Below the pieces are notes generated by a model. It saw nothing but the letters and a program-made list of their open reading frames with translations, ran no database searches and was not told the DNA's origin. Source: Candidatus Latescibacterota bacterium (GTDB lineage: Bacteria > Latescibacterota > UBA2968 > UBA8231). From it: a stretch of DNA of 64,000 nt. Within the stretch, counting starts at the first letter, position 1. Each line of letters starts with the position of its first letter. The position numbers and the translations under genes are program-made. Where the stretch lies: the NCBI GenBank assembly GCA_964291625.2, contig OZ220089.1, forward strand, positions 1,472,001 through 1,536,000. Reading direction: 5' to 3'. Below, piece by piece: positions 431 through 63,442 of this stretch.

Positions 431-445
431 TCTATCAGTCCTCGA

Positions 446-26052: not shown

Positions 26053-26087
26053 GGCGCGAGGGTAGTCAACCGCCCGGGGCGGGGGCA

Positions 26088-26139
26088 AGGGACCGCCCGG
26101 GAGCGCCGCCCTCTTGCACGCTCGGGGCGGAGCGGGTAT
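26088..26139 (+). repeat. degenerate direct repeat of 27855-27905 (promoter region of PhyH 27932), bracketing the BCCT gene
   Basis: AGGGACCGCCCGGGAGCGCCGCCC..TTGC...GGGTAT vs AGGGACCGCCCGAGAGCGCAGCCC.TTGC...GGGTAT. Confidence 0.6.
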
Positions 26140-26223
26140 GGAGGTCGGCGGACAGTTGCGGCAGCCTCCCGGAGGACCGATACCCCGGCGGCGGTCGGAG
26201 GCGCCGACTCAGGCGATGTGGGG

Positions 26224-27789: not shown

Positions 27790-27931
27790 CTCTCAGAATG
27801 TATACACCATCCGATCCGGACACGAGTTGGACCCCCAGGTCCTCGACGGGCACGAGGGACCGCCCGAGAGCGCAGCCCGTTGCCGGCCGGCGCGGGTTGG
27901 GGTATCGTGAGGACGACCGGCAAGACAGCCC

Positions 27932-41243: not shown

Positions 41244-41263
41244 GTCGGGCGTCGGCTCGCGTG

Positions 41264-41929
41264 CTATCTCAAACTGATCACCGGGTCATCCGCCTTGGCA
41301 ACGCCACCGAACTGGCCGTCCGGCGTCAGGGCCTGCACGCGGATCTCCTCGATTCGCGGCCAGTACTCGAAGAGACGAACCCCGATCGTCCCGATGGCTG
41401 ATCCGTTGCACTCGCAGCGGTAGCGTGCATGGAACTCGGAGTGCGTCTCCCCCTCCTCGCCGGCCTCTCCGTCCTCGTCGCCGTCATCGTGTCCGGAGTC
41501 CGTGCCGTCCTCTTCCTCGACGGCCTGTCCGTGCTCGTCGCCGTGGTCCTGTGCGGCTTCATGTCCGATGTGCGCGCCGTGCTCGTCCTCGTCCTCGTCC
41601 TCGTCATCAGCGCCGCGTCCATGACCTCCGTGCTCCACTTCCGCGACATGCAGGCTGCAGCTGGCCGCAAGGGGCAGGTCGAACAGCTCGTTGCCTTTCC
41701 TCAGCTGTTCGATCGCATCCCGGATCGCTCGACGCTCGGCGGCGGTGACCGCTTCGTGCTCGAAGCCGACGATGTTGCCGGCCGGTGACACGAACTCGAT
41801 CTCGAGTTCGTCGGCTTCCATGGCCAGGTTGAGGGTTGCGATCCCGTGAACGTGTGCGGACTGCTGAGCTGCCGTCACGCCGGTCAGCATCAACAGGAAG
41901 GCAACGACGGGCAGAGATCTGTGGATCAT
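41264..41929 (-). CDS. DUF2796 His/Asp-rich zinc-binding exported protein (ZrgA-like)
   Basis: Signal peptide, AHVHG, SPAGNIVGFEH, His/acidic insert, HSEFHARYRCEC. Confidence 0.88.
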   Translation of the reverse strand: MIHRSLPVVAFLLMLTGVTAAQQSAHVHGIATLNLAMEADELEIEFVSPAGNIVGFEHEAVTAAERRAIRDAIEQLRKGNELFDLPLAASCSLHVAEVEHGGHGRGADDEDEDEDEHGAHIGHEAAQDHGDEHGQAVEEEDGTDSGHDDGDEDGEAGEEGETHSEFHARYRCECNGSAIGTIGVRLFEYWPRIEEIRVQALTPDGQFGGVAKADDPVISLR

Positions 41930-42092
41930 ACGGCTCCTCCTCCGAGCGGGGCGCAGTCACAGTGGCGGAGATCAGGACGACGGACGCGCGAGCAGGCGCG
42001 CTTCTGCAACTCCGTCGGCGCGTGAGAAGCAGGCCCTGCAGCGCCGACGGAAGGGTGAATGAGCATAGACACGGTGCCGGCCTTCGCAAGCC

Positions 42093-45225: not shown

Positions 45226-45229
<4 letters not shown>

Positions 45230-46983
45230 CGGCTCTCTCCCGCGGCTTCCGCCGTCTCCTTCCGCGCCTCTTCAGGGGCGGCCATGAGGGACAGGTGGCC
45301 CCGGTCGACCTCGATCTGCAGGGGCGACCCGCCGGCGCCCAGGTGGCCGCTGACGGTGTGGCCGCCGCGGCTGTTGGCCGCCACCTCCAGCGGCAGGTCG
45401 GTGGCCGCGCGGCCGCGGTCGACGTGGCCGAGCACCTCCAGCGACGAATCGCGGGGCACCTGCAGGTGGACGTTGCCGCGCGAGCACTGCACCGTGCAGG
45501 GGGAGCCCACGGGCCGCTTCCAGCGGATCTCGACGTCGCCGCGCTGGCCCTGGACGGTGACCTCCGCGCCCGGCTCCAGGAGGAGGGTGCGGCCGCCGCT
45601 GGATCGCAGGGCGACGTCTCCGGCGACCTCGCGCAGCTCCACGGGGCCGTGGTCGCTGCGGACCATGGCGCCGCCGCCGACGGCGGAGGCCTTGAGCGGC
45701 GAGCGCGAGCTGCGCACCACGAGCCTGCCGCCCACGGCGGAGGCCGTCACGGGGGCGTGGCTGGCGCGCACCACGGCGCCGCCGCCGACCTCGTCGAGCT
45801 TCACCGGGCCGTGGGAGGTGGTCAGCTGCAGGTCCTCCGCGACGCCGGAGATGGTCATGGGCGAGTGACTGCCATCGACCGAGAGACCGGCGCGCAGGCC
45901 CTCGGCCTCCAGGGGGCTGTGGCGCACGCGGACCCGCGCCGCCCCGCGGACCCGGCGGATGCTCACCGGGCCGTGGGCGCCGGACAGCTCGAGGGAGCCG
46001 CCGGCGCGCCGCACCTTGGCCGGCGAGTGCTGCAGGCGCAGGTTGGCCGGGCCCTCGACGGACTTCACGCTCACCTTGGAGTGATGGGCGTCGAGGGTGA
46101 GCCCGCCTCCCAGCTGCCGCAGGTCCGCCTCTCCGTGGCGCTGCCGGAGGACGGTGTCGCCGCCGATGCCCTGCAGGGTCGTGCGGCCGTGGCGGGCGTC
46201 GATCGTGGCATCCGCCTCGAGGGAGGCGACGTCGACCTCGCCGCGGGCGTTGCGCAGGTCCACCGACACCTTCGGGTGCACGCGCACGACGAAGTGACAG
46301 GTCACCCGGGCCGGCCCCTCGTTGATGGTCCCGGAGCCCTGGGCCTCGACCCGCAGGGCGCCTTCGGTGCGGTCGAGGCTCAGGCCGACGCGGCGGGCGC
46401 AGTTCCTCGCCGTCTCCTCGTCGTGGGCGCCGGTCACCGTCCGCAGCTCCACCCGGACCTCGTCGCGGTCCCAGGTCTTCACCTGGATCGACCCCCGGAG
46501 GTTGCGCAGCGCCAGGCGTTCGCCCGGGGCCAGGGGCGCCTGCTCGGAGAGGTTGTACTCGACGGTGAACGCGTAGTCGCGGTCGTCGTCCACCTCGCCG
46601 GCCTCGGCGAAGGCCTCGCTGATCGTCCGTCCCATGTCGTTCAAAGCCTCGCCAAGATCGGGGATGGCGGCAAACGCCTCGTCCACCAGGTGATCCACGT
46701 CGGGGATGGCGTCGCGCACCGTGCGGCGGACCCCCGGCATGGAGGCGCGGACCGTGCGGCGGGCGCGGTCGAACTGGTCGCGGACCTCGCCCTCCAGCTC
46801 CTCCCACTCCACGGCCACCTGGTTCCCGAGATCACCGACCTGGCCCCACTTCACCCGGGGCCACTTCCCCCGCCTGGGCGGCGGGTCCCCGTTGCCGAGG
46901 GCCTTCAGCAGGCGCTCGGCCTCGTCCACCGAGATCTTCCCGTCGGCCAGCATCTGCAGCACCTTGGACCGCTCGTCGCTCAT
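45226..46983 (-). CDS. SHOCT-like + DUF4097 (Toastrack) beta-repeat protein (LiaX/YvlB-like)
   Basis: MSDERSKVLQMLADGKISVDEAERLLKAL; ~19-aa repeats such as HSP/HGP.....V.G.L.L. Confidence 0.82.
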
Positions 46984-47375
46984 GATCCATCCTCCTTCAG
47001 TTGTTCCAGCATGGAGACCGCGGTCCCGGCGTCGATCTCGCCGCGCTCCAGGCGCTCCAGCACGCCGCGGCGGCCTCCGTCCCCCGGAGGGGCGGCCGGG
47101 GCCTCCCCGCGGCTCTCGAAGCCCAGCTCGGCGATCACCTCGTCGAGGCGGCTGCGGACCGCCGCGTAGGGGACGCCGAGCTCGCGCTCCATCTCCTTGA
47201 CGTTGCCCCGGGCCCGCAGGAAGGCCTCGGCGAAGGCCAGCGACCCCGGCGACAGGCGGTCGAAGACGGTGGCGGCGAACCGCCCCGTGACGTCGGTCTC
47301 GCAACCCCCGCAACTCAGGCGGGTGATGCTCAGCTCCCCGCCGCAGGCGGGACAGCGTTCCAGGACCTTTCTCAA
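46980..47375 (-). CDS. DUF2089 family Zn-ribbon/HTH regulator
   Basis: CPACGG...LSCGGCET; RGNVKEMERELGVPYAAVRSRLD; C-terminal VLERLERGEIDA. Confidence 0.88.
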   Translation of the reverse strand: MRKVLERCPACGGELSITRLSCGGCETDVTGRFAATVFDRLSPGSLAFAEAFLRARGNVKEMERELGVPYAAVRSRLDEVIAELGFESRGEAPAAPPGDGGRRGVLERLERGEIDAGTAVSMLEQLKEDGS

Positions 47376-47481
47376 GACTGTTTTCTCCTGTTACGACAAA
47401 GAACGAAACACATGAAGCCGTTTCGCGGCAAGAATTTGGTAATTCCATAAAAAATGATGCCTGCTTCAGTGAGACCGCGAA

Positions 47482-47534
47482 ATATCAAATTATTGAAGTC
47501 TGGACTTGAGTTTTTTGATATATCCGCGTATAAT
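47482..47534 (+). promoter_or_regulatory. sigma70 promoter overlapped by a 40-bp imperfect palindrome
   Basis: TTGAGT(47506-47511)-N17-TATAAT(47529-47534); arms 47482-47501 and 47502-47521 match 15/20 as an inverted repeat. Confidence 0.7.
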
Positions 47535-47558
47535 CGTTTCATATTTGGAGGATGACCG

Positions 47559-47912
47559 ATGGATGTATCGAAAGCCCAGTGCCCCGAATGCTCCAGGGCC
47601 CTCCAGGTCGAGCGCATGGTCTGCCGCTCCTGCGGGGTGGCCGTGGAGGGCGAGATCGAGGTTTCGGCCCTCGGCCAGCTCGACCTCGACGACCAGGTCT
47701 TCGTCACCGCCTTCCTGCGCGGCCACGGGTCGATCCGGCGCATGGAGTCCCTCTTCGGGGTCAGCTACCCGACGGTGAAGAACCGGCTCAACAAGATCGT
47801 GGCCCGCCTCGACGCGGCCTTCACGCCTCCGCGCTCCGACAATGCCGAGGTCCTCGACCGGCTGGCGCGGGGGGAGATCACCGCCGCCCAGGCCCTCGAG
47901 GAGTTGTCTTGA
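47559..47912 (+). CDS. DUF2089 family Zn-ribbon/HTH regulator (second, divergent copy)
   Basis: GGAGG RBS; CPECS...CRSCG; GSIRRMESLFGVSYPTVKNRLNKI; VLDRLARGEITA. Confidence 0.9.
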   Translation: MDVSKAQCPECSRALQVERMVCRSCGVAVEGEIEVSALGQLDLDDQVFVTAFLRGHGSIRRMESLFGVSYPTVKNRLNKIVARLDAAFTPPRSDNAEVLDRLARGEITAAQALEELS

Positions 47913-48139
47913 TCCCTCCCATGTTCGTCCTCGTCGCCTTCGGGCGCGGTCCCTGGATGGTGCCCGTGCCCATCCCGGTCTTTCTCCTGTGGCCGCTGGC
48001 CCCGCTCGTCATCGCCCACGGCCGCATCGCCCGCGACCCCCGCGGCATCGCCCTCCTGCGCCTGGCCGCGGCGGCGCGGGGTCTGCGGGTCAGCCTCCGC
48101 AGCGGCTCCGGGGAGCGCTTCCTGCTCCGCGTGCTCTGA
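47909..48139 (+). CDS. small membrane protein
   Basis: TTG overlapping the previous stop; hydrophobic VPVPIPVFLLWPLAPLV. Confidence 0.6.
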   Translation: MIPPMFVLVAFGRGPWMVPVPIPVFLLWPLAPLVIAHGRIARDPRGIALLRLAAAARGLRVSLRSGSGERFLLRVL

Positions 48140-48166
48140 AACCCCCCTCGAAGAAGGAGACCTCCG

Positions 48167-48586
48167 ATGAGTGATGACCGCCGCAAGATCCTGGACATGC
48201 TGGCCGCCGACCAGATCAGCGTCGACGACGCCGACCGGCTGCTCGACAAGGTGGAGCCGCCGCCGGCGCCGGTGCCGGCCGTGGCGCCGGGCGATCCCCC
48301 GGCCCGGAGCGGGCCCCGCTACCTGCGCATCCACATCGTCGACGACGACGACAAGGTGGAGCTGCAGATCCCGCTGGCCCTCATCCGCACCGGCATCCGC
48401 CTGGGCGCCGTGGTGCCCGACTCGGCCAAGGGCAAGCTCAAGAAACTGAAGAAGCTGAAGAAGGAGGGCTTCGACATCGACCAGTTCTTCGAGATGGCAT
48501 CGGAGGAACTGGTCGACTCGCTGGCGGAGCTGGAGGTCAACATCGAGGGCGAGGACGGCGAGCGGGTGCGCCTGTTCTGCGAGTAG
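48167..48586 (+). CDS. SHOCT-like domain protein (DUF2089 operon partner)
   Basis: AAGGAG RBS; MSDDRRKILDMLAADQISVDDADRLL; RYLRIHI...VELQIPLALI. Confidence 0.82.
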   Translation: MSDDRRKILDMLAADQISVDDADRLLDKVEPPPAPVPAVAPGDPPARSGPRYLRIHIVDDDDKVELQIPLALIRTGIRLGAVVPDSAKGKLKKLKKLKKEGFDIDQFFEMASEELVDSLAELEVNIEGEDGERVRLFCE

Positions 48587-50956: not shown

Positions 50957-51347
50957 GGCGCGGCGCCGGGGTGGTGCCCGAGCTCGGTCAGTCCCCCGAG
51001 TCCAGGTCGATCCCCCGAAGACCCCAGGTCACCGGATCAGGGCCACCTTCCCGATCCTCACCTGGTTCCCCGCGATCAGCCTCCACAGGTAGACCCCGCC
51101 GGCGACCTCACGGCCATCGCTGGTGCCGTCCCACTCCTTGGCGTAGACGCCCCTGGGGACGCCAGGATCGGCCACCAGGGTGGCCACAGGCTGGCCGGAG
51201 AGGTTGTAGACGATCAGGCTCACCGGGGCGTCCTCGGGCAACTGATAGTAGAACATGGTCGCCGGATTGAACGGGTTCGGGGCTGAGTGGATGACGAGCT
51301 CCCGAGGTCCTCCCATGGAGGACGGTCAACTGCGGCTGGTGATTCTC

Positions 51348-51425
51348 AGTGCCATCATCGGTGCCGTCGTCGGTCCCGTCATCGGTGCCGTCGTCACTCC
51401 CGTCATCCGTGCCGTCATCGGTCCC
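51348..51425 (-). repeat. 12-bp tandem repeat encoding (GTDD)x6 linker
   Basis: GTDDGTDDGSDDGTDDGTDDGTDDGT. Confidence 0.85.
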
Positions 51426-51553
51426 ACCTCTTCTAGGGACCACCGGGGTGGTCTTGACGAGGGTGGTGTTGTCCTCGTAGTCATCGTTGTAGATCACCGT
51501 CGCCCGGAGTCTGCGTCCGACGTCGGAGGCGCTCGGTGTATAGGCAGGGCCCA

Positions 51554-52975
51554 CTAGCAGGCCGTTGATAATGTCACGTTTTGGCACACGTTCGGTCGAT
51601 CTGAGTGGAAGAGGCGCCGAGGGATGAGAAATCGTCGATCCCGGGCCCAGGTGAGGAAGGGGCCTCCGGCGCGACCCGAGAGGCCCCGAGCGGCTTGCCG
51701 CCACGCCTGGAAGAGCCCAAGAACCGCCCCCCGCGCCCGCAGACCCCTCGGGGTCCCGCAACCGGTGAGCTTCCGCATGGCCAGGCCCAGATTGAAGGCG
51801 CTGCCATGAAGGCTCAGCCGCTTGGAGATGTTGGCGTGGCCCCGCAGGGGCGTCCGCCGCAGACCCCCGCTTTCGTAGGTGTGAGCGAAACTGCGTTCCG
51901 CGCACTCGGCCCGACGCCGTTGCAGGGCGCGGCCTCGGGCCCCTCGAATCCGGCGTCGGTTGGCATACACGGCGGCCTGGGCGTCCCGGTCCTTCCACCG
52001 GCGGCGCCCGCGGTCGGGCTCGGACTGGTAGCCGCGGATCCGGGCGCGCTTCAACATCTTGGTCGTGTCGTTGCTGTGATACCCTTTGTCCGTCACCACT
52101 TCCGACATCGGTTGGCCATGCAGATGTTTCTTGGCTGTCGGATCCTGCGACACGGCCTGCAGATTCAGGTCGCTCTGGATCAGCGTCCAAGACAGCGATG
52201 CCGTGTCTCCCACGTCGGCGCCGGTCACCTGGGTGGCCACCAGGGCCTGGGTGTCCAGATCGACCGCGTGCTCGACCTTGTGTGCCAGGTGGGTCCGCCC
52301 GTCCTTCATCTTGGTGATGCGGGCCTCCGGGTCGTGGGGATGCTGCCAGTCCTGGTTGGAGCCTTTGCGCGGCCGCTTCTTGTCGAGCCGGGCCACGTCC
52401 TGGCGCGTCGGCGTCTCGATCCCTTCGGCCCGGGCCAGCTCCTCCAGGTACTCGCGGTAGCCTTGCCCGGTGTCCCGCCGCACGACGCTGCGCAGGGCGG
52501 CGTTGGCCTCCAGGGTCGTGGCGTCCACCGCCAAGGTCTTGCCCTTCAGGAGCCCTTCCTTGGCCAGCACGGTCAGCACCCAGTTGAACACCTCTTGGTA
52601 GACCTCCGGCGGCAGACGCTGACGAATGCGCGTCAGGCTCGAGTGATCGGGCGTGGCCTCGCTCAAGGCGTAGCCCAGAAACCGCCGCAGCGACAGCGAG
52701 TCGGCCACCCGCCAGGCGATGCCCCGCTCCGAGCCCAGGCCCTCGAAGTAGCCGATCAGGAGCATGCGAAAATAGACCCCCGGCGCGATGCTCGGCCGGC
52801 CCAGCTTCTCCGCGTAATACGGCGCGCACCGGGATTCCACAAACCGGTCAAATCCATGCGCCGCCAGCAGCTGATTCAGTTGCGTATAGAACGGACACCC
52901 GGGCGCCTCCGGCAGCGTGTGGGTCGGCACCCACATCTCCTGTTGCTGACTCTCGGGTCGTCGACTCATCGACAT
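51554..52975 (-). CDS. IS1182/IS5-like DDE transposase
   Basis: GRPSIAPGVYFRMLLIGYFEG, PDHSSL, VDATTL, TDKGY, ERSFAH. Confidence 0.9.
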   Translation of the reverse strand: MSMSRRPESQQQEMWVPTHTLPEAPGCPFYTQLNQLLAAHGFDRFVESRCAPYYAEKLGRPSIAPGVYFRMLLIGYFEGLGSERGIAWRVADSLSLRRFLGYALSEATPDHSSLTRIRQRLPPEVYQEVFNWVLTVLAKEGLLKGKTLAVDATTLEANAALRSVVRRDTGQGYREYLEELARAEGIETPTRQDVARLDKKRPRKGSNQDWQHPHDPEARITKMKDGRTHLAHKVEHAVDLDTQALVATQVTGADVGDTASLSWTLIQSDLNLQAVSQDPTAKKHLHGQPMSEVVTDKGYHSNDTTKMLKRARIRGYQSEPDRGRRRWKDRDAQAAVYANRRRIRGARGRALQRRRAECAERSFAHTYESGGLRRTPLRGHANISKRLSLHGSAFNLGLAMRKLTGCGTPRGLRARGAVLGLFQAWRQAARGLSGRAGGPFLTWARDRRFLIPRRLFHSDRPNVCQNVTLSTAC

Positions 52976-53018
52976 CGATCCGGCTCCTTGGGTACGTGGC
53001 CTATGCCGAATCTAGAAA

Positions 53019-54382
53019 GGCTCATCCGGGATTACTGTGGGTAGCCCCAACATGTTGTGGTCTCGGATAGAGGTCGAGTCCGCCGCAATGGAAGTAGATG
53101 GCGGTCTGGAAGTTCGTGCGGTTGCGATAGCCGCGGGCCAGGCGCTTGACCTTTTCCACCTGCGCGTTCACCGCCTCGTTGAGGGCGTTGGTGATCCGGT
53201 GGCGCAGGTAGGTCAGGATGTTGTCCAGCCGCCGCTTCAGCGTGCGGGCCACGGCGATCACCGGCGGCAGACGGCTGTGGGTGGCCCAGAAGTACCAGCG
53301 CCGGAAGAAGCGACGAGCCCACCCTTCCCGGCGGTAGGTCCACAGCTGGCGCAGATTCTCCTTCAGGGCCCAGGCGCGGCTGACCTGCAGGTCCATGGCC
53401 CGCAACGCCTCGAACCGGGGCAGCAGGGCCTCGGGGATCCGGTCGGGGTGGTAGAGCCAGAGGTATTTGGTCCCCGTGAGCACCTCGTCCTGCTGGGCCC
53501 GCAGCTTCTTGTGCTCCTGGCGGCGCACCCGGTCGACGGCCTCGTTCATCAGTCGCAGGACGTGGAACTTGTCGAACACGATCTTGTCCCCGGCGTCGGG
53601 CACCCAGGCTTTCACGGCCGCGATGTAGGGGTCGTGCATGTCCAGGCAGATGGCCTCGATCCGCTTCAACTCCTGTTCGTCGAAGGGGAGGAAATACTCC
53701 TCCAGGCTCTCCCGTCGACGACCGTCGGCCACGTGTTCCACGCTCTTGGTTTCCAGGTCGCAGACCAGGGTCATGTACTGGTGGCGCTTGGCGAAGGCCT
53801 TCTCGTCGACGCCGAGATGGACCGGCACCCTCCACACCTTGCGGCGCTGGCCCCGGCGAACGGCGCCGGCCAGGACGCTCGAACAGCGATCCCAACTGAG
53901 CCCGGTGAGGCGGCTCACCGCCTGCAGGCTGCACTCCTTGGCCAAGTCGATGACGCGGGCCTCCAGGGCCCGGGTCAGACCCGAGCCGGGCTCGGCCCAC
54001 TCGGAAGCGATGGAGAGCACGACGTGGACCCGGCACTGGACCCGGGGCAGGCGGGTATGGACGTAGGTCGGCCGATCGCAGGTGTCCAGATGGCGCCATT
54101 CCCGCTCGGGGGCGTGGTCGTAGACGGGACACCAGGCGTCACAGCGGGGACAGCGCATCTTGACGCCGCGCTCATGGTCCACGTAGACATCGACCCGCTC
54201 CCGGTCCTGGAACCGCACCTCGAGCACAATCCAAGGGCGCTCGATTCGCAGCAGATGGGCATAGAACTGCTTGAGGTCGTCCATGGACGGCCCTCCCCGA
54301 TGGCGGTGGCAAGGGACTGCGAGACTCGGTCCCTATGATACCACAACATCTTGGGGGTCCCCACTCTCAACCCGGATGAGCC
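53019..54382 (-). mobile_element. ISL3-family IS
   Basis: TIR GGCTCATCCGGG at both ends; 8-bp TSD TCTAGAAA (53011-53018, 54383-54390). Confidence 0.93.
53022..54284 (-). CDS. ISL3 transposase
   Basis: CPRC, WRHLD, GVDEK, DM, DKFHV, TNALNEAVN. Confidence 0.93.
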   Translation of the reverse strand: MDDLKQFYAHLLRIERPWIVLEVRFQDRERVDVYVDHERGVKMRCPRCDAWCPVYDHAPEREWRHLDTCDRPTYVHTRLPRVQCRVHVVLSIASEWAEPGSGLTRALEARVIDLAKECSLQAVSRLTGLSWDRCSSVLAGAVRRGQRRKVWRVPVHLGVDEKAFAKRHQYMTLVCDLETKSVEHVADGRRRESLEEYFLPFDEQELKRIEAICLDMHDPYIAAVKAWVPDAGDKIVFDKFHVLRLMNEAVDRVRRQEHKKLRAQQDEVLTGTKYLWLYHPDRIPEALLPRFEALRAMDLQVSRAWALKENLRQLWTYRREGWARRFFRRWYFWATHSRLPPVIAVARTLKRRLDNILTYLRHRITNALNEAVNAQVEKVKRLARGYRNRTNFQTAIYFHCGGLDLYPRPQHVGATHSNPG

Positions 54383-54962
54383 TCTAGAAAAGACCGGTAC
54401 GAGGGGACAATCGTCCCCTCCCCCATCCGCGCCTTTTTCAACGGACTGCTAGGTCCGGATCGTCCGCTGACTCGACGGTTCCTCCTGCCTTCGACCAGGA
54501 CCACCTCATCTCTTCCGCGTCGTCAGGGTCGATCAATCTCCCTGTGATGACCTGCCCTTGAACCGGAGGATCGGCGTTGTCCAGGGAGATCTCTCCGACG
54601 GTGTTCTGCTTGAGAGTCACGGTGACGGAGTAGGCCTCCGTGGAGGCATGGGTCGCCGTGCTGCCGTTGACGCCCACGGTGTATACGTTAGCGTCGGGGT
54701 CCGTTTCATTGTAGTCCGGTCGACTACTCGTGAAGGTCAGGTCGCCGTTGTCGTCGATCGCGAAATATCCATCGGAGTTGGAGCTCAGTCTCCAGGTCAC
54801 GTCCGATATACTCTCGCCGTCGGAAGTCTCTGCCGCGTACCGGCCAAATGGCCCGCGACCATCCTTGGTAGTAGTCGAGAGTCGTCGGGCCGCGGATGAC
54901 CAGCGCTTGCACGGTAGTCAGTCTCGGCTGGAGAGGAGCGGTGGGCTCGCTCTGGGCGGTAA

Positions 54963-55051
54963 GGCTTTGTCACGAATCAACTGAACTACTGCGGGGCGCC
55001 CTTCGGTCGGCGGAACCTCGACTTATGACTCGTTTATTTGTTCGCGGAGCC
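54963..55051. mobile_element. 89-bp MITE related to ISAzo13
   Basis: TAA TSD (54960-54962, 55052-55054); ends GGCTTTGTCACGAA and GGCTCCGCGAACAAATAAACG match the two ends of the ISAzo13 copy. Confidence 0.8.
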
Positions 55052-56801
55052 TAACCTTCGCCACTGGATGCGCATCGTCGTTGTAGGTCACTGTGGCTCT
55101 GTACTTCCTGTTCAGATACCTGTCGTCGTCTGGCGTAAAGGTGTTGGTGATTTCCCCGTCCACATAGTCACCCGGCCGGCCCTCCATTGTGATCTCCTGC
55201 CATCTCCACCCCACCCTCCTCGGATTATCGCGGTCGTTGAAGGTCGCAACGATTGGCGTGCCAATCCTTGGCGGATCGCCTGTCTGGAGCGTCACGGTGC
55301 CTCGAATGTTCTTCTTGACGTCCACAGACACGTCATAGGACGTTCGACGCTGTGGGTTGATGGTCGCCACGACATCAATGTCGTACGTCCCTGCTGGGGT
55401 GCTGGCTGCATCCGCAAGGGTCAGGCTGCCCTCGTCATCGATGGCAAAGTAGCGGTCGTTGTTGTTGGTCAAGGACCACTCGACGGAGGCTCCTCCGCAG
55501 GTCCCCTCCGGGACCGAGTACTGCCCCAGAGCATTGCCCCGGTGCGTCCAGTGGGTATAGCTGCTCTCCCCTCGACAACTATCGGCACGGGAGGGGCGGG
55601 GAAGTCCCGCGTATAGATGCCGCTCCACCGATAGTGCTCCTCGTCAATGTCACTGTCGCGATCGGCCTTCGTGTCCCTGATGCAGTCGGATTCGCTTCGG
55701 ATGCAGTGACCTGCCTTGACAGCCAGGGTGTAGGTCCTGCCGGGAGACATGGGCCACTCCTCCACTTGGCCCGGTCTCCACCACCTGTCATAGGGGTCGA
55801 CATCGATGGAATCAATAGCCTCCCAGAATTCCACACCCCGCGGCTTCCAGGTGCCTGAGGAGGGGATGTGCTGCTGGGGGTCTCCGCCATGACAGTCTAC
55901 CGAATTCACTTTGAGGAATACCATCGAAATGGGAGGGTTCTGGTCTTGCTCGCCTCCCAATTTGATTGCCACTTTGGCGCGGCTGTTGCTAAGGCATCGC
56001 GCAGAAATAAACGCTGTTCTTTTTGATGGAGGGGTGTTATCTTTGAAGCGTGGACACGGAGAGCACCCTGCGGGCGAAATGCGAAGCCCTGGCGCCGATG
56101 TTGAACGAGCGCACCCGGCGCTTGTGGGCCGCGTCGGAGGCGCAAGCCCTGGGGCATGGCGGCATTGCCGTGGTGGCCCGGGCGACGGGCCTGTCGCGGA
56201 CCCGGATCGCTCGCGGCCTGCAGGAACTGCGGTCGGACGCCCCCCCGGCCGTGTGCGCCGACCGGGCGGCGGCCGCAAGCGGCGCGTCGATACCGACGTC
56301 ACGCTGTTGTCGGACCTCAACGCCCTGGTCGAGCCGGTCACCGCCGGGGCGCCGGACGACAGTCCCCTGCGATGGACGTCGAAGAGCACCCGCAAGTTGG
56401 CGGTCGAGTTGCAGGCCTTGGGCCATTCGGTAAGTCCTCGCCTCGTCAGCGGACTGTTGCACGAGCTCGGCTACACGCTGCAGGCGAATCGCAAGACGAG
56501 AGAAGGCACCCAACACCCGGATCGGGACGCCCAGTTTCACTATCTCAACGACCAGGTCCGAAGGGCCCAGGCCCAAGGCCAGCCGGTCATTTGTCAAGGG
56601 ACACCCAGATTCGCGCAGTTAGGGGACACCCAGATTCGCGCACCCCGGATGGTCGGGGTTGGTGGTACCGGATCGGTTTCCCTCCCTCCGGAGGTGAGGC
56701 GTGGCACCGGGCGCGGGGGTCTTCAATGCACCCCGGGGCGGAGCCCCCGCTCCCACGAAGGGCCCCTCTTCGAAGAGGCCTGGCGGTGAACGACGTACGG
56801 G

Positions 56802-57581
56802 TCATCGGTCCTGGGCGAGCTGCTGCTCCATGTCCCGGAGGCGGAAGCTGCGGCCGTCGATCTGCAGTACATGGCAGTAGTGCAGCAGGCGGTCCAGGAT
56901 GGCCGTGGCCAGGACCTCGTCGCCGGCCAGCATCTCCGGCCATTCGCGGATGCTCTTGTTGGAGGTGATCAGGGTGCTGCCGCGCTCGTATCGATGGTTG
57001 ATGACCTTGAACAGCAGGTGGGCCTGGTGCCGGTCCAGGGCCTGGAAGCCGAGCTCGTCGATGATCAGCAGACTGGTGGTCATGTACTTGCGCCGGTGCA
57101 GCCGCGAGCCGTCGGCGGTTTCGTCGCGGCGGACCACGTCGACGAGGTCGTCGGCGCTCATGAAGGCCACGGAGAAACCGTTCTGCACCGCCTTGACGCC
57201 CAGCCCGGCCGCCAGGTGGGACTTGCCCACGCCCGGGGGGCCCAACAACAGCACCACCTCCTTGCGGCGCACGAACTCGGAGGTAGCCAGCAGGTCGATC
57301 TGGCTCTTGTCGACGCTGGTCTGGAAGGCGAAGTCGAAGGTGTCCAGGGTCTTGCCTCCTGGCAGGCCGGAGAGCTTGAGGCCGGTGCGCACGCGGCGCT
57401 CCTCCCGCGACTCCTGCTCCCGCTGGCAGACCAGGTGCAGGAACTTGGGCAGGCTCAGCTCTTCCTTGACGGCCCGCTCCAGCAACTCCGGCAGGCACTG
57501 GGACACCCACTCCAGGCCCAGGTGCGTCAGCAGGGTGCGGGTGTCGTCCAGCTCGCTCTGCGAGGGGGGACGGGCGGCCAT
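56802..57581 (-). CDS. istB: IS21 helper ATPase
   Basis: GPPGVGKSHLA, LIIDELGF, ITSN, AILDRLLH, GRSFR. Confidence 0.95.
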   Translation of the reverse strand: MAARPPSQSELDDTRTLLTHLGLEWVSQCLPELLERAVKEELSLPKFLHLVCQREQESREERRVRTGLKLSGLPGGKTLDTFDFAFQTSVDKSQIDLLATSEFVRRKEVVLLLGPPGVGKSHLAAGLGVKAVQNGFSVAFMSADDLVDVVRRDETADGSRLHRRKYMTTSLLIIDELGFQALDRHQAHLLFKVINHRYERGSTLITSNKSIREWPEMLAGDEVLATAILDRLLHYCHVLQIDGRSFRLRDMEQQLAQDR

Positions 57582-58882
57582 CAGCCCCGCCTCCCGGCGC
57601 GTTCCACCAGCGCCGCGTAGCCGTCGAGGGGCCGAGTGGGCGCCTGCCAGTCCCAACTCTTGGGCAGCACGATCTGCTGGGCCAAGCGCCCCAGGGGCGT
57701 GGGCGCCTCGAGATGATCCGGCGGCGCCCCCTCGTAACAGCGTTGATCGATGAGACGGCGACAGGCCGTATGGCGCGGATAGCTCATCACACAGCGGTCC
57801 TCGACGTAGATCTCGACCGTGGCGGCGCAGCCGCGCACCTGCACGGCGCGGCCCACCCAGGCGAAGGGCACGCCGTATTCGCGGCCGTCGAAGCGCACCA
57901 AGCCGTCGCGGCCCACGTCTCGCTGCACCTGCGTGTCGAAGGGGGTGGGCAAGGTTTCCGGCAGCGGCGCCAGGTGAGGCCGCTCCACCTGCCAGGACTC
58001 GGCCACCGACTGGCCGGTCAGCGGACAGCGCAGGCGCTCGGCCGACTCGAGCACCCGCAGATCGGACGCCGTCTGCAACTCGGCCAGGGTCTCGAAGCGC
58101 TCGTTGCGCCGGATCAGATTCCAGCGCACATCGCGCACCCGCCGCTCGACCTTGCCCTTGTCGGTGGGCCGGCGGATCCGGCAGGCGTCCGGCACGAAGC
58201 CCAGCGGCCGGGCGTAGGCGGCGTAGTCGTCGTTGAGGATCGCCCACGGCCCGCCGCGGCGGACCACGGCGGTCTTGCAGTTGTCGAAGCGCACGCTCCA
58301 GGGCACCCCCTGTACCGCCTCGAAGGCGCGATTGTGCGCCTCCTGCCAGGACAGCTGGCCCTGGTCGAGCCGCCACTGCACCGACCACATGCGCGAAAAG
58401 CTGAGCGACAGGCTGAAGGCGCTCAGCCGCGTGCGACCACCCAGCTCGCGCACCTGCACCCAGGGCTCGACCCAGTCCACCTGCGCCTGGCTGCCCGGCC
58501 GCACCTCCACCCGACGCAGCGGGCGCACCTTCGGCGGCGGCCGGCGTCGCCGCACATAGCGGGCCACCGCCTTGTAGGTCCCCCGGTAGCCGTGCTCGCG
58601 GACCAGGGTGTCGTAGAGGGCCCGCACCGGCTCCGGCCGCTGGCCCTCTTGCACACGCTCTTGCTGTCCCTGGATCCACGCCTGAATCACCCCGTCATGG
58701 GCCGAACAGGCCTCCGGCTTGCACCGACGGCCGTCCTCCGCCCCCTCGGCTCGACGCTTGAGCCGGTAGCGAAGGGTGCTCTCGGCGACCCCCAACTCCT
58801 GGGCCGCCGAGCGAACGCTGTGACCGCACTCGGCGGTCAGGACTTGCGCACACACCAGATCTCTCTCCCGCAACTTGGTCAT
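57581..58882 (-). CDS. istA: IS21 transposase
   Basis: PGSQAQVDW, FDNCKTAV, KGKVER. Confidence 0.95.
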   Translation of the reverse strand: MTKLRERDLVCAQVLTAECGHSVRSAAQELGVAESTLRYRLKRRAEGAEDGRRCKPEACSAHDGVIQAWIQGQQERVQEGQRPEPVRALYDTLVREHGYRGTYKAVARYVRRRRPPPKVRPLRRVEVRPGSQAQVDWVEPWVQVRELGGRTRLSAFSLSLSFSRMWSVQWRLDQGQLSWQEAHNRAFEAVQGVPWSVRFDNCKTAVVRRGGPWAILNDDYAAYARPLGFVPDACRIRRPTDKGKVERRVRDVRWNLIRRNERFETLAELQTASDLRVLESAERLRCPLTGQSVAESWQVERPHLAPLPETLPTPFDTQVQRDVGRDGLVRFDGREYGVPFAWVGRAVQVRGCAATVEIYVEDRCVMSYPRHTACRRLIDQRCYEGAPPDHLEAPTPLGRLAQQIVLPKSWDWQAPTRPLDGYAALVERAGRRG

Positions 58883-60012
58883 GCCCGGCCCCCTTGCCTG
58901 AGGAACGATTCCTCCAAGGATGGCGCCGAGCGACGGATCGCGGGGTGCGCGAAAGTAGATGTCCCTTAAGAGCGAAAATCGGTGGATTCCTTACATCATT
59001 TCGGTGGACACCAAGAAGAAGGAGCTGATCGGCGACTTCAAGAACGGGGGTCGAGCCTGGCGTCCGAAGGGCGATCCGGAACGCGTGAAGGTCCACGACT
59101 TCCTCATCCCCACCCAGGGCAAGGCGATTCCCTACGGGGTCTACGACCTGAGCCGCAACGAGGGCTGGGTCAGCGTTGGGGTCGACCACGACACCGCCCA
59201 CTTCGCGGTGAACACCATCCGCAGCTGGTGGCAACGCATGGGACGCCCGGCCTACCCGGCGGCCTCGCACCTGTGGATCACGGCCGATGCGGGGGGCAGC
59301 AACGGCCCGAGACTGCGATTGTGGAAATGGGAATTGCAGCGCTTTGCCGATCGCACGGGCCTGACGATCACCGGCTGTCACTATCCTCCGGGCACGAGCA
59401 AGTGGAACCGCATCGAGCATCGCCTGTTCTCCTATATCGCCAAGAACTGGCGAGGCCAGCCGTTGGTCAGTCTGGCCACGGTGGTCAACCTGATCGGCCG
59501 GACGACCACGACGAAAGGGCTTCGAGTGCGCTCGGAGATCGACAAGCGATCGTATCCCAAAGCTGTGGTCGTCAAGGACGAGCAAATGGAGCGGATCGAT
59601 CTCTTGCCGCATGAGTTTCACGGGGACTGGAACTACACGATCCGGCCCACATCGGCCAGCCGAAGTGAATCATCTGTTTCGTGACAAAGCCCTAGTCCTC
59701 CCTGTAGGATAGCTGTATGGAGGGATTTTCTTGCCTACTGAACTACCTGCTACACTTCTAAATGCTCTTTGAACTGATTCCGCGGCCGGATTGTTGAAGA
59801 AGTTCTTCGACCCATCAAATTAACGAGGAGAAATGTGATGGAATTTCCAGCACCGTAATCGTTTGGAGGAAGGGTGTTTCTGCTTTGTGGTCACGGCTGG
59901 AGACGCTAAGATTGAGAACCCTCTTTGCGTTCTCTCTGATGGCCTCGCGGCTCTCTTTGATGGCTTCGCTTAGGTCGGTCATGTATAACTCCTTGAGTTA
60001 AGGTTATTTCAG

Positions 60013-60087
60013 CGGAGGAGAAGAAGGGAAGGGACCTCCCAAGGGAAGGCACCAGAGGTCCCCGGATCAGCCCCTTCTCCCCCTCCG
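60013..60087. other. long imperfect hairpin downstream of the His1 operon
   Basis: CGGAGG/CCTCCG, AGAAGGG/CCCTTCT and GGGACCTC/GAGGTCCC nested stems. Confidence 0.45.
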
Positions 60088-60092
60088 ATCAA

Positions 60093-60626
60093 TCAGGGGT
60101 CGAGGATCTTCGTCCTCGTGCAGTTTGGTTCAGGATTCACCCACTCCCCGTCATAGTAGTAGGTGGTCCCGTTCTTGTCCTCCGAGTCGTTGGAGATCAG
60201 CAGTGCGTCGTTGTGGCACTTGATCCCCGCCGCGGAGAAGTCGAACGTTGCGCACTCGGCTACGGCATCCCCTCTTTCCCATACGTCGTCAGGGCAGTCG
60301 GATTCCTTGGACGTGCACTGAGGCTCGTATCTCGGGTCCCCGTCGAGGCGGGCGATAACCTCGGTGGTTGTCCACTCTCTGGTGTGGTAGTGGTAGTACA
60401 GAGCTTTGCCCCGGCCCACTCCGTCGTGCGGCACCGGGAGCACCTTGTACACGTCTTTCCGCTCCCACCGGGTGTCTATCACGGTTTGAGACGGGAACTT
60501 GCAGCCCCAGCAGTCATACAGCTTCTTGGGCGTCCCGATCCTGTGCTTGTAGCCGTGTCCCTCGGCCTCCTTGACCGCCAGCCCCAGGACCGCGACCACC
60601 AGCCCGACGACGATAGTGATTCTCAT
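60093..60626 (-). CDS. secreted His/Cys-rich hypothetical protein (paralog B)
   Basis: GGAGG RBS; 23-aa signal peptide ending AEG, then HG; HYHTREWTT. Confidence 0.8.
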   Translation of the reverse strand: MRITIVVGLVVAVLGLAVKEAEGHGYKHRIGTPKKLYDCWGCKFPSQTVIDTRWERKDVYKVLPVPHDGVGRGKALYYHYHTREWTTTEVIARLDGDPRYEPQCTSKESDCPDDVWERGDAVAECATFDFSAAGIKCHNDALLISNDSEDKNGTTYYYDGEWVNPEPNCTRTKILDP

Positions 60627-60647
60627 GCTTTCCTCCCTGCGAGTGAG

Positions 60648-61226
60648 TTAGAACGAAAAGAACGCCTCAGTCCTCGCCCCTCCTAAAGCAAGGCTAAAGA
60701 TGGTTCGCACGATGTCTCGGCCGTCCCTGGGCCGGTTCATCCTGGTGTAACGCAAGGACACTCCTTTCTGAGTCCGCAGGCCGACCCGGTTGAAGGGCCT
60801 CCAGGCTACCCCGATCCCTGTTCCGCACCCCAAAATCAAGGTGCTGCCCTTTAGCTCTCCTTCGCTGGTGTGTCGGCTACTCCTTTCGGATAAGCTGACG
60901 AACCAGAAGGGTTTGATTTTGCCCTTGCCCTCCCGGTAGCGGTGGTGGATCAGGCTTATCTCTGCGCTGACCCTACCGGCTTCGAGGTCTCCGATCTCCT
61001 CTTTCACCCACTCCCCTTCTGGCCCCGTGGTGACCTGTGATACCTCACCCTGGCTGCTGGAGATCAACCCTCCTATTTCCAGTCCCCAGGCCGAGCTACC
61101 GCTGCTCCTCCAGACGCTGACCTTGTCCATGTCAGGTACGGTCAGCCCAAGAGCATACTTATCCTCCGGCTCGGCATCGGCCCAGGTGAAGGCCAATGCC
61201 GAGCCTACGAAGATGAGCCTTTTCAC
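60648..61226 (-). CDS. putative outer-membrane beta-barrel protein
   Basis: GTG overlapping the upstream stop; signal peptide; alternating strands (KPFWFVSL, GTGIGVAWRPFNRVGL); C-terminal ...AFFSF. Confidence 0.7.
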   Translation of the reverse strand: MKRLIFVGSALAFTWADAEPEDKYALGLTVPDMDKVSVWRSSGSSAWGLEIGGLISSSQGEVSQVTTGPEGEWVKEEIGDLEAGRVSAEISLIHHRYREGKGKIKPFWFVSLSERSSRHTSEGELKGSTLILGCGTGIGVAWRPFNRVGLRTQKGVSLRYTRMNRPRDGRDIVRTIFSLALGGARTEAFFSF

Positions 61227-61732
61227 GAGGTCTTGCGCACATACCAGCAGGGGTAGTAGTGGTGGTAATAGTAGTAGTCGTAGCCGGAGATTCCGTCGTC
61301 CACGGGCAGGTAGGTTTCTTCCGGGTAACCGTCCTGGCAATTCGTGTCGTTGTAGAAGCAGTAGCCGAGGGAGTTCCCATACGGCTTTTTGACCTTCTCG
61401 TCCGCGCACTTGCTCTCCCACACGTCACAGTCGTAGGAGTAGCGGGGGTGGGGATAGGTGAAGTCCTGGGAGGTTGTCCACTCGGATACGTGGTAGTGGT
61501 TGACCGGATTGACGGCCTTGCTGTGGGTGTCGCCGCCGGGGTCCTCGCTGTACAGGTTGGATCTCTTCCAGGTGGTTGTCACCCGGTAGATGGAGAGCCC
61601 GCTTACGCAGGCCTCTCTTTCTCCGATCTTCTGCTTCTCCCCCTTCCTGACCAGTGATCCGTGCCCGTAAACGTCACTGACGATCAGGACGCATCCGAGC
61701 AGAAGGAGTCCCGCCAAAATCTTGCAGCGCAT
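61223..61732 (-). CDS. secreted His/Cys/Tyr-rich hypothetical protein (paralog A)
   Basis: AAGGAG RBS; 23-aa signal peptide ending VYG, then HG; HYHVSEWTT. Confidence 0.8.
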   Translation of the reverse strand: MRCKILAGLLLLGCVLIVSDVYGHGSLVRKGEKQKIGEREACVSGLSIYRVTTTWKRSNLYSEDPGGDTHSKAVNPVNHYHVSEWTTSQDFTYPHPRYSYDCDVWESKCADEKVKKPYGNSLGYCFYNDTNCQDGYPEETYLPVDDGISGYDYYYYHHYYPCWYVRKTS

Positions 61733-61736
61733 GATT

Positions 61737-61856
61737 CTACTCCTTGAGAGGAGCCCACTCGTCAGTGAGCTTCTCGATGATGAAGAATTTTGCCTCGAAA
61801 GACTTGCTGATCTCCGAGGCGGATTTGCGGCACTTGTCGATGGTGCCGCATGCTAG
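61737..61856 (-). pseudogene. 3' fragment of an upstream gene truncated by insertion
   Basis: Open frame ACGTIDKCRKSASEISKSFEAKFFIIEKLTDEWAPLKE* ending 4 nt before the paralog A start. Confidence 0.35.
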
Positions 61857-61872
61857 GGGTCTCTGCGGAACG

Positions 61873-63442
61873 TGTCAATGCGAATGAGACACTTCGGTTG
61901 ATAGTTTACTGTCCTCCTTCGGCTCGCATTCGATGGTCTTCGGAGGCGGGTTGATCCACACTTCGGCCGGGAGTTCGGGCGCCTGGGGCGGCCCCTGGAC
62001 GAAGCGCTCGGGATGGCGTGCGTAGGCGTCCTCGAGGACGCGTTGCCGTTCGGCCTGGAGCGAGCCGGCCCGGCCTTGATGGACGGCTTCCGGGGTCAGC
62101 AGGCCGAGTCCGCTGTGGCGATGTTGGGTGTTGTACCAGGGAAAGAACGAGCGGCAGTAGGTTCGAGCCTGCTCCGGGTCGGCAAAGCGGCCCGGGTAGG
62201 TGCGGGCGTATTTGACCGTTTTGAACTGACTTTCCGAATACGGGTTGTCGTCGGCGGTGCGCGGCCGGCTGTAGCTGGCCCGGATGTCGAGATCGACGAG
62301 CAGCTGCGAGAAGCTCTTGGCCGTCATGGGGGCGCCCCGGTCCTGGTGCAGGGTCAGTTGCCCCGGCGCGATCCCTTGCCGGTGGCAAGCGGCCTCGACC
62401 AGGCGCCGGGCGCGGCCGGCGCTTTCCCCGGTGGCCACCATCCAGGCCACGACGTAGCGCGAAAACAGATCCAGCACCACGTAGAGCGGATACGTCTCCC
62501 CTCGACGCGGACCGGCCAGGCGGGTGATGTCCCACGTCCAGATCTGGTTGGGGGCCGTGGCCACCAGCCGCGGCGGCTCGGCCCGGGGGTGGCGGCGTTG
62601 GCGGCGACGTTCCCGCACCTCGCCGGCGTCGTGCAGCAGACGATACATCGTGCGCACAGAGCACAGGTAGCGGCCTTCCTCCAGCAGGCTCGCGTAGACG
62701 GCGGCCTGACGGCGGCCGGGGCCTGATCGACGAACCGGTCTTCGTGCAGGGTCGCCAGCACCTGGGCGCGTTCGGCCGGCGCCAGGGCGCGAGGCGAACG
62801 GCGCGGGGCCGGACCCGGCCGGGCCCCCGGCCGCTGGCGGTGCCGGTAGATCGAGGCCCGGGGCACCCCCAGAGCCCGGCACGCCGGCGCCACCCCGACC
62901 AAGGGCGCCAACTGTTCGACCGCGGCTCTCATTCGTCGTCGGCGTTGGCGGGCCGGTTCAGGGGGATCCCCAGGATCTCGGAGGCTTTTTTTGGATCTCG
63001 AGAATCGCCTGGGCCTGCGCCAGACGCCGCTGCAGGCGGGCGTTCTCCTGGCGCAGCCGCTCGTTCTCGCGGGCCACCGGGTCGCGGCGACGGCCCTGGG
63101 GCCCCCGGGGTTTGGCCAGGGCCTGCAACGAGCCTTCCCGGCGCGCCCGCCGCCAGGCGGTCAGCTGCGAAGAATACAGGCCCTCGCGGCGCAGCAAGGC
63201 GCCGACCTCGCCCGGCGCCCGGCAGGCCTCGGCTTCTTCCAGGATCCGCAGTTTGTATTGGGCACTGAAGCGACGGCGCTTGGCCCTCTCCGGCACTTCC
63301 GAATCCGGAGCGGGCGCCGCCTTGGAGGGCCCTCCAGGGACCCTGGCTCCCTTCGACCATTGTCCGTGCTCATCCTTGCTCTCCTTGCCGCCCTCCAACA
63401 ATACTAAACTCGGATGGCAAAGTGTCTCACTCTATACTGGCA
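61873..63442 (-). mobile_element. IS3-family IS (degenerate)
   Basis: TG...CA ends with shared TGAGACACTT; no convincing TSD. Confidence 0.85.
61875..63401 (-). pseudogene. IS3 OrfA/OrfB transposase, OrfB frameshifted by an 11-bp duplication near 62700
   Basis: RRRFSAQYKLRIL HTH; A7G run at QKK; WTWDIT, HQDRG, DNPYSESQFKT DDE core. Confidence 0.85.

Follow-up and report, generated by a model that had tools for sequence, protein, structure and literature searches.

Three genes, here called A, B and C, lie on the minus strand within a unique 2.2-kb segment of the window, by which we mean the whole 64,000-nucleotide stretch of DNA that was analysed. The segment was delimited by its composition and by IS ends defined from inverted repeats, with an ISAzo13-family element (right end at 59694) on one side and an IS3-family element (end at 61885) on the other. 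Its GC content is 0.50-0.61 compared with ~0.70 for the window, and it holds A, B, C, one 55-aa ORF and no other ORFs. The features of the region are as follows.

51554-53011: DUF772 transposase gene
53018-54383: ISL3 element
54960-59694: ISAzo13-family element, interrupted by an IS21
56596-58992: IS21 inside the ISAzo13-family element
59695-61884, no strand assigned: unique 2.2-kb segment with A, B and C
60026-60040, minus strand: hairpin resembling a terminator, with a T-rich tract behind it, 53 nt past the stop of C
60093-60626, minus strand: gene C, paralog of A in the His1 family, 177 aa (listed ORF)
60558-60626, minus strand: predicted signal peptide of C, 23 aa, ending in AEG (sequence features)
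60648-61226, minus strand: gene B, putative small outer-membrane β-barrel, 192 aa (GTG start, language-model features)
61223-61732, minus strand: gene A, His1 family, 169 aa (listed ORF)
61664-61732, minus strand: predicted signal peptide of A, 23 aa, ending in VYG (sequence features)
61850-61878, minus strand: promoter-like TTGACA-17-TAGCAT, 10/12 match, ~118 nt upstream of A and 7 nt outside the IS3 end
61885-63429: IS3-family element

An intact gene block among insertion sequences

The preliminary description had pictured three tightly coupled ORFs that stayed intact in an island damaged by IS elements. Both points stand. The frames of A, B and C are unbroken, with five IS elements nested around them; AAGGAG lies 7 nt ahead of the ATG of A and GGAGG 5 nt ahead of the ATG of C, and the start of B, a GTG at 61226 with no visible RBS, overlaps the stop of A (GTGA). 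GC3 in A, B and C is 0.83, 0.73 and 0.83, compared with a GC2 of 0.41, 0.51 and 0.44. The longest middle ORF (60648-61421, 257 aa) was dropped in favour of the 192-aa frame because it overlaps A by ~200 nt in another frame and has no signal peptide. Counts of regulatory signals are within chance: two promoter-like sites were found compared with 0.9 ± 1.1 in shuffled sequence, and two terminator-like hairpins, which are weak, compared with 2.8 ± 1.9.

Synteny with the three closest relatives ends at 50,960, and close relatives do not have the 2.2-kb segment beside the same neighbouring gene. The A-B-C arrangement is known from one genome. Neither a megablast search with the 51-64 kb region nor tblastn with A, B and C matched anything in the plasmid collection. 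When 39 ORFs of the window were scanned with Pfam, no multicopper oxidase, CopD, P-type ATPase, copper regulator, PcoA, PcoD or PcoRS-type regulator was found, nor were pmo or amo genes, and no carbohydrate-active or polysaccharide-degrading genes adjoin A-B-C. The window does contain zinc genes, encoding ZrgA (41264-41956) and an ABC ATPase (40542-41285), which lie 18 kb away in a conserved part of the genome and are unlinked to the segment. Neighbouring DNA also carries weak adhesin-like remnants (CshA_repeat, E=0.019; RibLong, E=0.0011), both below cut-offs.

The A/C family and its conserved residues

A and C are true paralogs. BLASTP finds 31% identity across 134 aligned aa (E=1e-7, single comparison), and in tblastn searches of the whole window each matched only the other copy. 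The motifs HG..R.G...K, T.W.R...Y...P, HYH..EWTT and PRY...C...ES.C.D, together with further Cys, are all invariant in the pairwise alignment, as the preliminary description had it. Its 23-aa signal peptides are likewise recovered, with predicted cleavage at VYG|HG in A and AEG|HG in C, so that positions -3/-1 are V/G and A/G. The mature proteins would be 146-154 aa long. Mature A is predicted to start with HGSLVRKG at 61663, has six Cys and ends in a Tyr/His-rich stretch (YYYYHHYY); mature C is predicted to start with HGYKHRIG at 60557 and has seven Cys, with HYH at mature positions 56-58.

A profile search of 1,835,955,588 representative proteins returned nine proteins at E<=0.001, namely A, C, six relatives (E 6.7e-16 to 3.7e-5) and a 1,648-aa repeat protein, P0009. 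The last matched only over profile positions 97-137 and was set aside as a compositional match. An alignment search of a 5.8-billion protein set gave seven proteins, of which P0012 and P0013 were newly added. The family thus has ten members, A, C and eight relatives, the latter all from metagenome assemblies; one of these, P0007, is truncated to 95 aa, and P0004, P0006 and P0008 come from contigs of 18.5, 99.8 and 6 kb. N-termini were counted in all ten sequences and other conservation in the nine full-length ones; covariation analysis would need a larger set than these ten. A was also considered as a lipoprotein, on account of LLGC at residues 11-14, but this was dropped because C and six of the eight relatives lack that Cys. 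In P0008, P0010 and P0013 a Cys does occur in the signal peptide, but it follows a Leu and not the small residue of a lipobox.

At the N-terminus, all ten sequences have a hydrophobic core, a small residue at -3 (A, V or T), G (nine) or A (one) at -1, and then His, which is followed by G in eight and E in two. That a His would sit directly behind a plausible SPase I site, as first noticed in A and C, therefore holds in 10/10 family sequences by their sequence features, and the HxH motif is retained in 9/9 full-length members. Only ten columns are invariant in the full-length set: G-1, H1, C19, S23, H56, H58, Y77, C81, C88 and C102. In proteins that share 24-30% identity with C, the invariant columns thus comprise almost only residues that could serve as metal ligands or form disulfides. 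Histidine is otherwise variable in number, from four in mature P0006, P0012 and P0013, three of them invariant, to seven in A and ten in P0004.

By every search made here, the family is very rare and undescribed. A word-index homolog search with C returned the query alone. An alignment of eight family sequences offered no stretch conserved enough to serve as a search pattern, and a pattern scan of the genome collection with A and P0004 matched 68 stretches, 0 of which encode a relative. Searching 80 loci fetched by the neighbouring GGT gene with all family members and B by tblastn gave nothing significant (best E 0.049 for B, 0.85 for A and 0.98 for C). The earlier view of an undescribed family agrees with the lack of any Pfam, NCBIfam, PADLOC, PHROGs or PDB match; for A, B and C, PADLOC and PHROGs gave nothing under E=0.02.

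The same view had found no recognisable LPMO or CopC motifs, and LPMO_10 and CopC are indeed absent at E<=1 in Pfam, as is DUF1775. A and C match 0 Pfam families at that threshold and P0004, P0005 and P0006 none, while P0007, P0008 and P0010 have one unrelated sub-threshold match each (E 0.043-0.9), in no case to LPMO_10. In the PDB, 0 sequences matched the family profile at E<=10. AF2 modelled C with a mean pLDDT of 54.4, reaching ~72-82 in residues 11-40 and 61-80 alone; the model places three long strands in residues 11-69, and the rest is under pLDDT 50. Foldseek with this low-confidence model gave 0 PDB matches at E<=0.001 and no LPMO among the matches listed, and a likeness of the C fold to copper proteins is therefore without support. 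The top match, an actin-capping protein (E=0.079), was judged to be noise and dropped because of the low confidence of the model. In the ESM Atlas nothing reached the 0.9 lead threshold for C, its nearest language-model neighbours being an unnamed cluster (0.89) and Sushi-domain clusters (0.84-0.86).

The putative barrel gene B

Protein B starts with the signal-peptide-like VKRLIFVGSALAFTWADA, its signal peptide ending in WADA, and closes with AFFSF (F-x-F), leaving 174 mature residues. Outer-membrane barrels carry a signal peptide and a C-terminal aromatic (Phe) β-signal of the BAM type, and B has both. The preliminary description had taken the middle gene for a small barrel ending in Phe; the Phe is present, and B looks barrel-like by language-model features only. 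These features score 0.97 to clusters of hypothetical proteins from Gemmatimonadota and 0.96-0.97 to clusters carrying DUF3575, OMP_b-brl and TraO; such scores are leads rather than alignments. B resembles OMP_b-brl (PF13505), DUF3575 (PF12099) and TraO (PF10626) in its signal peptide, its C-terminal Phe and its size (174 mature residues compared with clusters of 176-205 aa). It differs from them in that Pfam, including its barrel families, gave 0 matches at E<=1 and the word-index search returned B itself alone. The sole NCBIfam match is unrelated (E=0.065), and three PDB phmmer matches at E=0.57-1.2 were discarded, so that B has no similarity to any solved outer-membrane protein that phmmer detects in the PDB. 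A single-sequence AF2 model of B (pLDDT 37.7) is all-β, with long hairpins at 70-81/85-96 and 138-149/152-163.

Eight-stranded barrels of about this size are anchors or channels rather than protein-conducting pores. Display or export of A and C by a barrel of their own, as proposed, is accordingly unsupported, mature B having the size of an 8-stranded anchor or channel and not of a conduit for proteins. When mature B and mature C were modelled as a complex, the score was 0.00, a value obtained without controls that counts neither for nor against binding.

A candidate metal site and its alternatives

In the account of PMC10952591, few protein folds are known to have a site formed around an N-terminal His that is exposed by loss of the signal peptide. 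Such sites underlie both copper trafficking and strong C-H oxidation chemistry. All histidine-brace classes covered by the account in PMC10952591 have a cleaved signal peptide, and in every class described there the free amino group and side chain of His1 form a copper site. In pMMO, CuB is described as bound by His33, through both its amino terminus and its side chain, together with His137 and His139 (PMC12576850). PcoC is described as a Cu chaperone of the periplasm whose gene accompanies that of PcoB, a protein of the outer membrane (PMC9210255).

Set beside these systems, the conserved residues of the A/C family suggest a metal site, probably for copper, and our best reading from the sequences is that A and C are periplasmic or secreted, disulfide-stabilised metal-binding proteins. 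Signal peptidase I would cut directly ahead of the invariant His. The α-amino group and imidazole of His1 would then combine with the invariant HxH on a β-strand, and possibly with the invariant Tyr, into a mononuclear metal site. The metal would most likely be Cu(II)/Cu(I), with a ligand set as in pMMO CuB and the histidine-brace-like CopC/PcoC sites. A and C could thus bind, buffer or hand over periplasmic copper, while B, if linked to them by more than co-transcription, might stand beside them as a channel or anchor, much like PcoB with PcoC. Taken together, we tentatively favour, at somewhat less than an even chance, a three-gene accessory operon of an uncultured, Gemmatimonadaceae-like diderm, made up of two Sec-exported, disulfide-stabilised metal-binding paralogs and a small barrel; A and C would have diverged anciently within an undescribed and very rare family.

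None of the known systems fits in full. The CuB site of PmoB/AmoB, as described in PMC12576850, has the same ligand set, for which the counterparts in the A/C family would be H1, H56 and H58; however, A and C are small, soluble and Cys-rich, not membrane-enzyme subunits, and the family profile shares no PDB match and the window no pmo or amo gene with that enzyme. CopC/PcoC with PcoB offers a small periplasmic N-terminal-His copper protein encoded with an outer-membrane β-barrel (PMC10952591, PMC9210255). In contrast, the A/C family has four invariant Cys and no CopC match, no PcoA-type oxidase, PcoD or PcoRS lies near A-B-C, and B has no similarity that phmmer detects to any solved outer-membrane protein. 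The mono-histidine brace of YcnI/DUF1775 is, in the account of PMC10952591, that of a bacterial exported copper-handling protein using its N-terminal His, as proposed for A and C. YcnI has another side chain in place of the second His, whereas the A/C family retains two further His and has no DUF1775 match.

A bolder form of the copper reading, which we regard as possible but doubtful, is that A and C represent a new histidine-brace copper scaffold, small and with three disulfides, in which a pMMO-CuB-like His1/HxH set is joined by the invariant Tyr. A and C would form a heteromeric pair and, with a barrel of their own, make up a portable module for copper acquisition or oxidation. If true, such a site would for the first time be known from a fold other than those of LPMO, CopC/PmoF, YcnI, X325 and PmoB. 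A tiny disulfide-locked scaffold with His1 and HxH would serve as a model of the debated pMMO CuB site that is soluble and easy to express, and would broaden what is looked for when metagenomes are searched for copper proteins.

The strongest alternative, in our view unlikely, is that A and C are disulfide-rich secreted proteins without any metal role, serving in envelope structure, adhesion or interaction with a partner organism, with the His structural or needed for processing and the barrel merely co-transcribed. The lack of a fold or family link to any metalloprotein fits this, as do the absence of copper genes among the window ORFs scanned, the sub-threshold adhesin-like remnants nearby and the language-model neighbours of C, which are weak and non-metal. 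Shuffled proteins, however, reach the Sushi score range about one third of the time. Whereas the N-termini of mature proteins usually vary, positions -1, +1 and mostly +2 are fixed across the ten sequences at 24-52% identity, and His occupies three of the ten invariant columns. Were no metal bound, A and C would simply represent a rare family of secreted orphans carried on mobile DNA, and the interest would be no more than local.

Copper is not the sole candidate metal, since zinc- and nickel-binding proteins also carry N-terminal His-rich stretches. A zinc or nickel site at the N-terminal His and HxH, used for periplasmic scavenging or buffering, would agree with the His-rich mature A and P0004 and with conserved ligands that are His throughout, among which no ligand motif of Met or Cys is evident. 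We nevertheless consider it improbable: the His1 amino-group and side-chain sites described in PMC10952591 are all copper sites, and the zinc genes of the window are distant and unlinked. The position of the segment between IS ends within the IS nest, the end of synteny and the truncated P0007 could mark A-B-C as a decaying or silent passenger remnant on mobile DNA, no longer expressed or useful in the host. This is very unlikely given three intact frames with start signals and host-like GC3 bias, and two paralogs that both keep all the invariant residues.

Least probable of all is a highly diverged LPMO-type oxidative enzyme, with a catalytic histidine brace and axial Tyr, whose substrate would be a polymer either of the envelope or outside the cell: a signal peptide followed by His-Gly as in AA10, another conserved His, the conserved aromatic Tyr77 and a β-rich N-terminal half in the low-confidence C model recall that family, but neither profile nor fold searches match it, the second ligand motif is HxH, no polysaccharide-degrading genes adjoin, and typical LPMO domains are larger than mature A and C.

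Genes A, B and C

The interval 60093–61732 is filled by three minus-strand genes, A, B and C. The preliminary description of a tightly coupled set in which two paralogs flank a third gene is borne out by the genes themselves, their coupling, their codon-position GC content and the paralogy of A and C.

61223–61732, minus strand: gene A, 169 aa; uses the first start codon past the upstream stop, with AAGGAG 7 nt ahead
60093–60626, minus strand: gene C, 177 aa; GGAGG 5 nt ahead of the start, which lies 21 nt past the B stop

The ORF finder gave the middle gene a frame of 257 aa from 61421. Judged from the sequence, a start at GTG 61226 makes better biological sense; this codon overlaps the A stop codon (GTGA) and yields a B of 192 aa with N-terminus VKRLIFVGSALAFTWADA and C-terminus AFFSF. 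GC3 is 0.73–0.83 against a GC2 of 0.41–0.51 across A, B and C, as expected of genuine genes where the genome is GC-rich. A and C share 31% identity over 134 residues (E=1e-7), and every motif previously listed as common to them corresponds to invariant columns in their alignment; the window holds no further A/C copy.

The genes sit in a unique 2.2-kb segment (59695–61884) with a GC content of 0.50–0.61, against a window average of ~0.70, and five IS elements are nested at 51554–59694 and 61885–63429:

61885–63429: IS3-family element bounding the segment on one side; 10-bp perfect terminal repeats without a matching target duplication
54960–59694: ISAzo13-family element bounding it on the other side; transposase gene split by IS21
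56596–58992: IS21, inserted into the ISAzo13-family transposase gene
53018–54383: ISL3, further left; CTAGAA target duplication at its flanks
51554–53011: DUF772/IS5-like transposase gene, left of ISL3

A promoter-like TTGACA-17-TAGCAT is found 7 nt beyond the end of IS3, and C is followed by a hairpin weakly resembling a terminator; sites of either class are no commoner than in shuffled sequence. Downstream of C, in the lowest-GC stretch (0.50), a 55-aa ORF (59815–59982, minus strand) has AAGGAG ahead of its ATG and only a weak AbiEi-like match (E=0.021). Open frames at 54438–54917 and 55023–55628 (both minus strand) bear a weak likeness to adhesin repeats (CshA_repeat E=0.019 and RibLong E=0.0011, both below cut-offs) and may derive from a gene for a large surface protein that IS elements disrupted.

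The A/C family and protein B

Word-index searches with C and with B each matched only the query itself. A profile of mature A and C was then scored against 1.84 billion representative proteins (E≤0.001) and recovered nine: A, C, six relatives with E-values between 6.7e-16 and 3.7e-5, and a repeat protein of 1,648 aa, which was discarded because its match covers only 41 profile positions. Searching the resulting eight-sequence alignment against a 5.8-billion set gave seven proteins, two of them additional, so that the family to date comprises ten sequences from about six lineages. Metagenome assemblies are the sole source of the relatives, which form clusters of 1–4 sequences on 1–2 contigs. 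One of the ten, P0007, is only 95 aa long and departs from the alignment at its tail. Trimmed to its first 72 residues for the tree, it pairs with C (support 86/88), while A and the relative P0004 (41% identical) take no resolved placement; since C groups with P0007 apart from A, the tree indicates that the A/C duplication is old. None of the ten sequences has a significant Pfam or NCBIfam match, PADLOC and PHROGs gave none for A, B or C, and no PDB sequence matched the family profile even at E≤10.

All ten N-termini have a basic n-region followed by a strongly hydrophobic core and small residues, with A, V or T at −3 and G at −1 (A in one sequence). His follows directly in every case, with Gly (eight sequences) or Glu (two) behind it. 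The mature N-terminus is fixed across the family; that of secreted proteins is usually poorly conserved. Across the nine full-length sequences, invariance is confined to ten columns (numbering of mature C): Gly-1, His1, Cys19, Ser23, His56, His58, Tyr77, Cys81, Cys88 and Cys102. Two more near-conserved positions bring most mature proteins to six Cys. In three members the mature chain contains only four His, and these include the three invariant ones. The invariant columns are thus almost wholly potential metal ligands and disulfide partners. An AlphaFold2 model of C built from a seven-row alignment is of low confidence (mean pLDDT 54.4, pTM 0.43; only residues 11–40 and 61–80 average 72–82 in blocks of ten) and predicts three long strands (11–20, 24–39 and 54–69), with the HxH at the start of the third, where both of its side chains would face the same way.

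Protein B is best read as a small outer-membrane barrel, on the strength of a signal peptide, a terminal Phe and language-model features that place it (0.97) with clusters of Gemmatimonadota hypothetical proteins, DUF3575, OMP_b-brl and TraO. Profile searches gave no match to a barrel family, and the single-sequence AlphaFold2 model is poor (pLDDT 37.7), all-beta with long hairpins. The earlier proposal that the barrel exports or displays A and C found no support; at 174 residues it is comparable in size to an 8-stranded anchor or a narrow channel.

A putative His1 metal site

In the available excerpts of the literature, a histidine brace is copper chelated by two His, one of them N-terminal and binding through both its amino group and its side chain, and all known classes are described as unmasked via signal-peptide cleavage (PMC10952591). 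Excerpts likewise give the pMMO CuB ligands as N-terminal His33 with His137 and His139, an HxH motif (PMC12576850), and describe PcoC, a CopC-family copper chaperone in the periplasm, as encoded together with outer-membrane PcoB (PMC9210255). By function, the PmoB CuB site and the PcoC/PcoB pairing are nearest to A, B and C: the ligand logic of the former seems to be reproduced on an unrelated, Cys-rich scaffold, and a barrel gene likewise adjoins. The family belongs to none of LPMO_10, CopC and DUF1775, whose profiles gave no match, and nothing resembling it appeared in the available portions of the literature on histidine-brace families and outer-membrane partners.

Starting from genes, paralogy, a family and conservation that are observed, we tentatively favour A and C as periplasmic or secreted metalloproteins, copper being the likeliest metal, that would bind or pass on the ion near the small barrel. 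The signal peptide would be cleaved before His1, the Cys would form disulfides, the metal would sit at His1 and the HxH, and B would be a partner. Against this stand the lack of fold evidence (a Foldseek search of the PDB returned no match at E≤0.001), the absence of copper genes among the 39 ORFs scanned in the window, an A-B-C arrangement seen in a single genome, and the IS-ridden setting. Non-metal secreted proteins are a serious but unlikely alternative, and zinc or nickel at the site is distinctly improbable. The surroundings could suit a silent remnant, which, with the codon-position pattern retained, we consider very improbable; a diverged LPMO-type enzyme, sharing an N-terminal His but no LPMO_10 profile match, is slightly more improbable.

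The favoured metalloproteins would place a secreted His1 metal site, in itself of known kind, on a scaffold that is new; it is doubtful that they make up a truly novel family of histidine-brace copper proteins equipped with a dedicated barrel. The conservation signal is clean and bench-testable, in a tiny family whose functional steps are all inferred.

Synteny and flanking genes

The neighbouring gamma-glutamyltranspeptidase (GGT) gene was used to scan one-genome-per-species contigs; of the 218 pattern matches, 180 were relatives. Amino-acid identity is highest for those from uncultured Gemmatimonadaceae MAGs (95% and 93%) and from a MAG labelled Latescibacterota (93%). Nucleotide synteny with the closest Gemmatimonadaceae-like MAG loci (L001, L002 and L006; 88–93% identity) stops at ~50,960, the end of the GGT gene, and none of the 80 loci examined encodes a relative of A, B or C. 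The sequence comparison therefore indicates that the segment is strain-specific accessory DNA of a diderm lineage; an outer-membrane protein would fit such a host.

Past 50,960, the window shares only a short FlgD_ig-like C-terminal domain (51029–51325) with L001 and L006 (~42% amino-acid identity), and just upstream of this fragment lies a tandem array of a 12-nt unit (51346–51429; 5 overlapping 36-nt copies). At 1264–1757, L002 matches the transposase region of the window's IS21 (58235–58754) over 520 nt (86%), so a related IS21 occurs elsewhere in a close relative.

Elsewhere in the window, a citrate-synthase-domain protein with an N-terminal MerR-type HTH occupies one frame (419–1669, plus strand), an unusual fusion if a single gene. 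A BCCT betaine/carnitine/choline transporter gene lies between two PhyH-family dioxygenase genes (25297–28882), an arrangement suggestive of a cluster for taking up and oxidising quaternary amines. At 40542–41956 (minus strand), a gene for a ZrgA-family zinc-uptake protein adjoins an ABC ATPase gene; the two belong to the conserved part of the genome and have no connection with the His1 segment. Genes with DUF2089 (zinc ribbon and HTH) and SHOCT-like domains cluster at 45226–48586.
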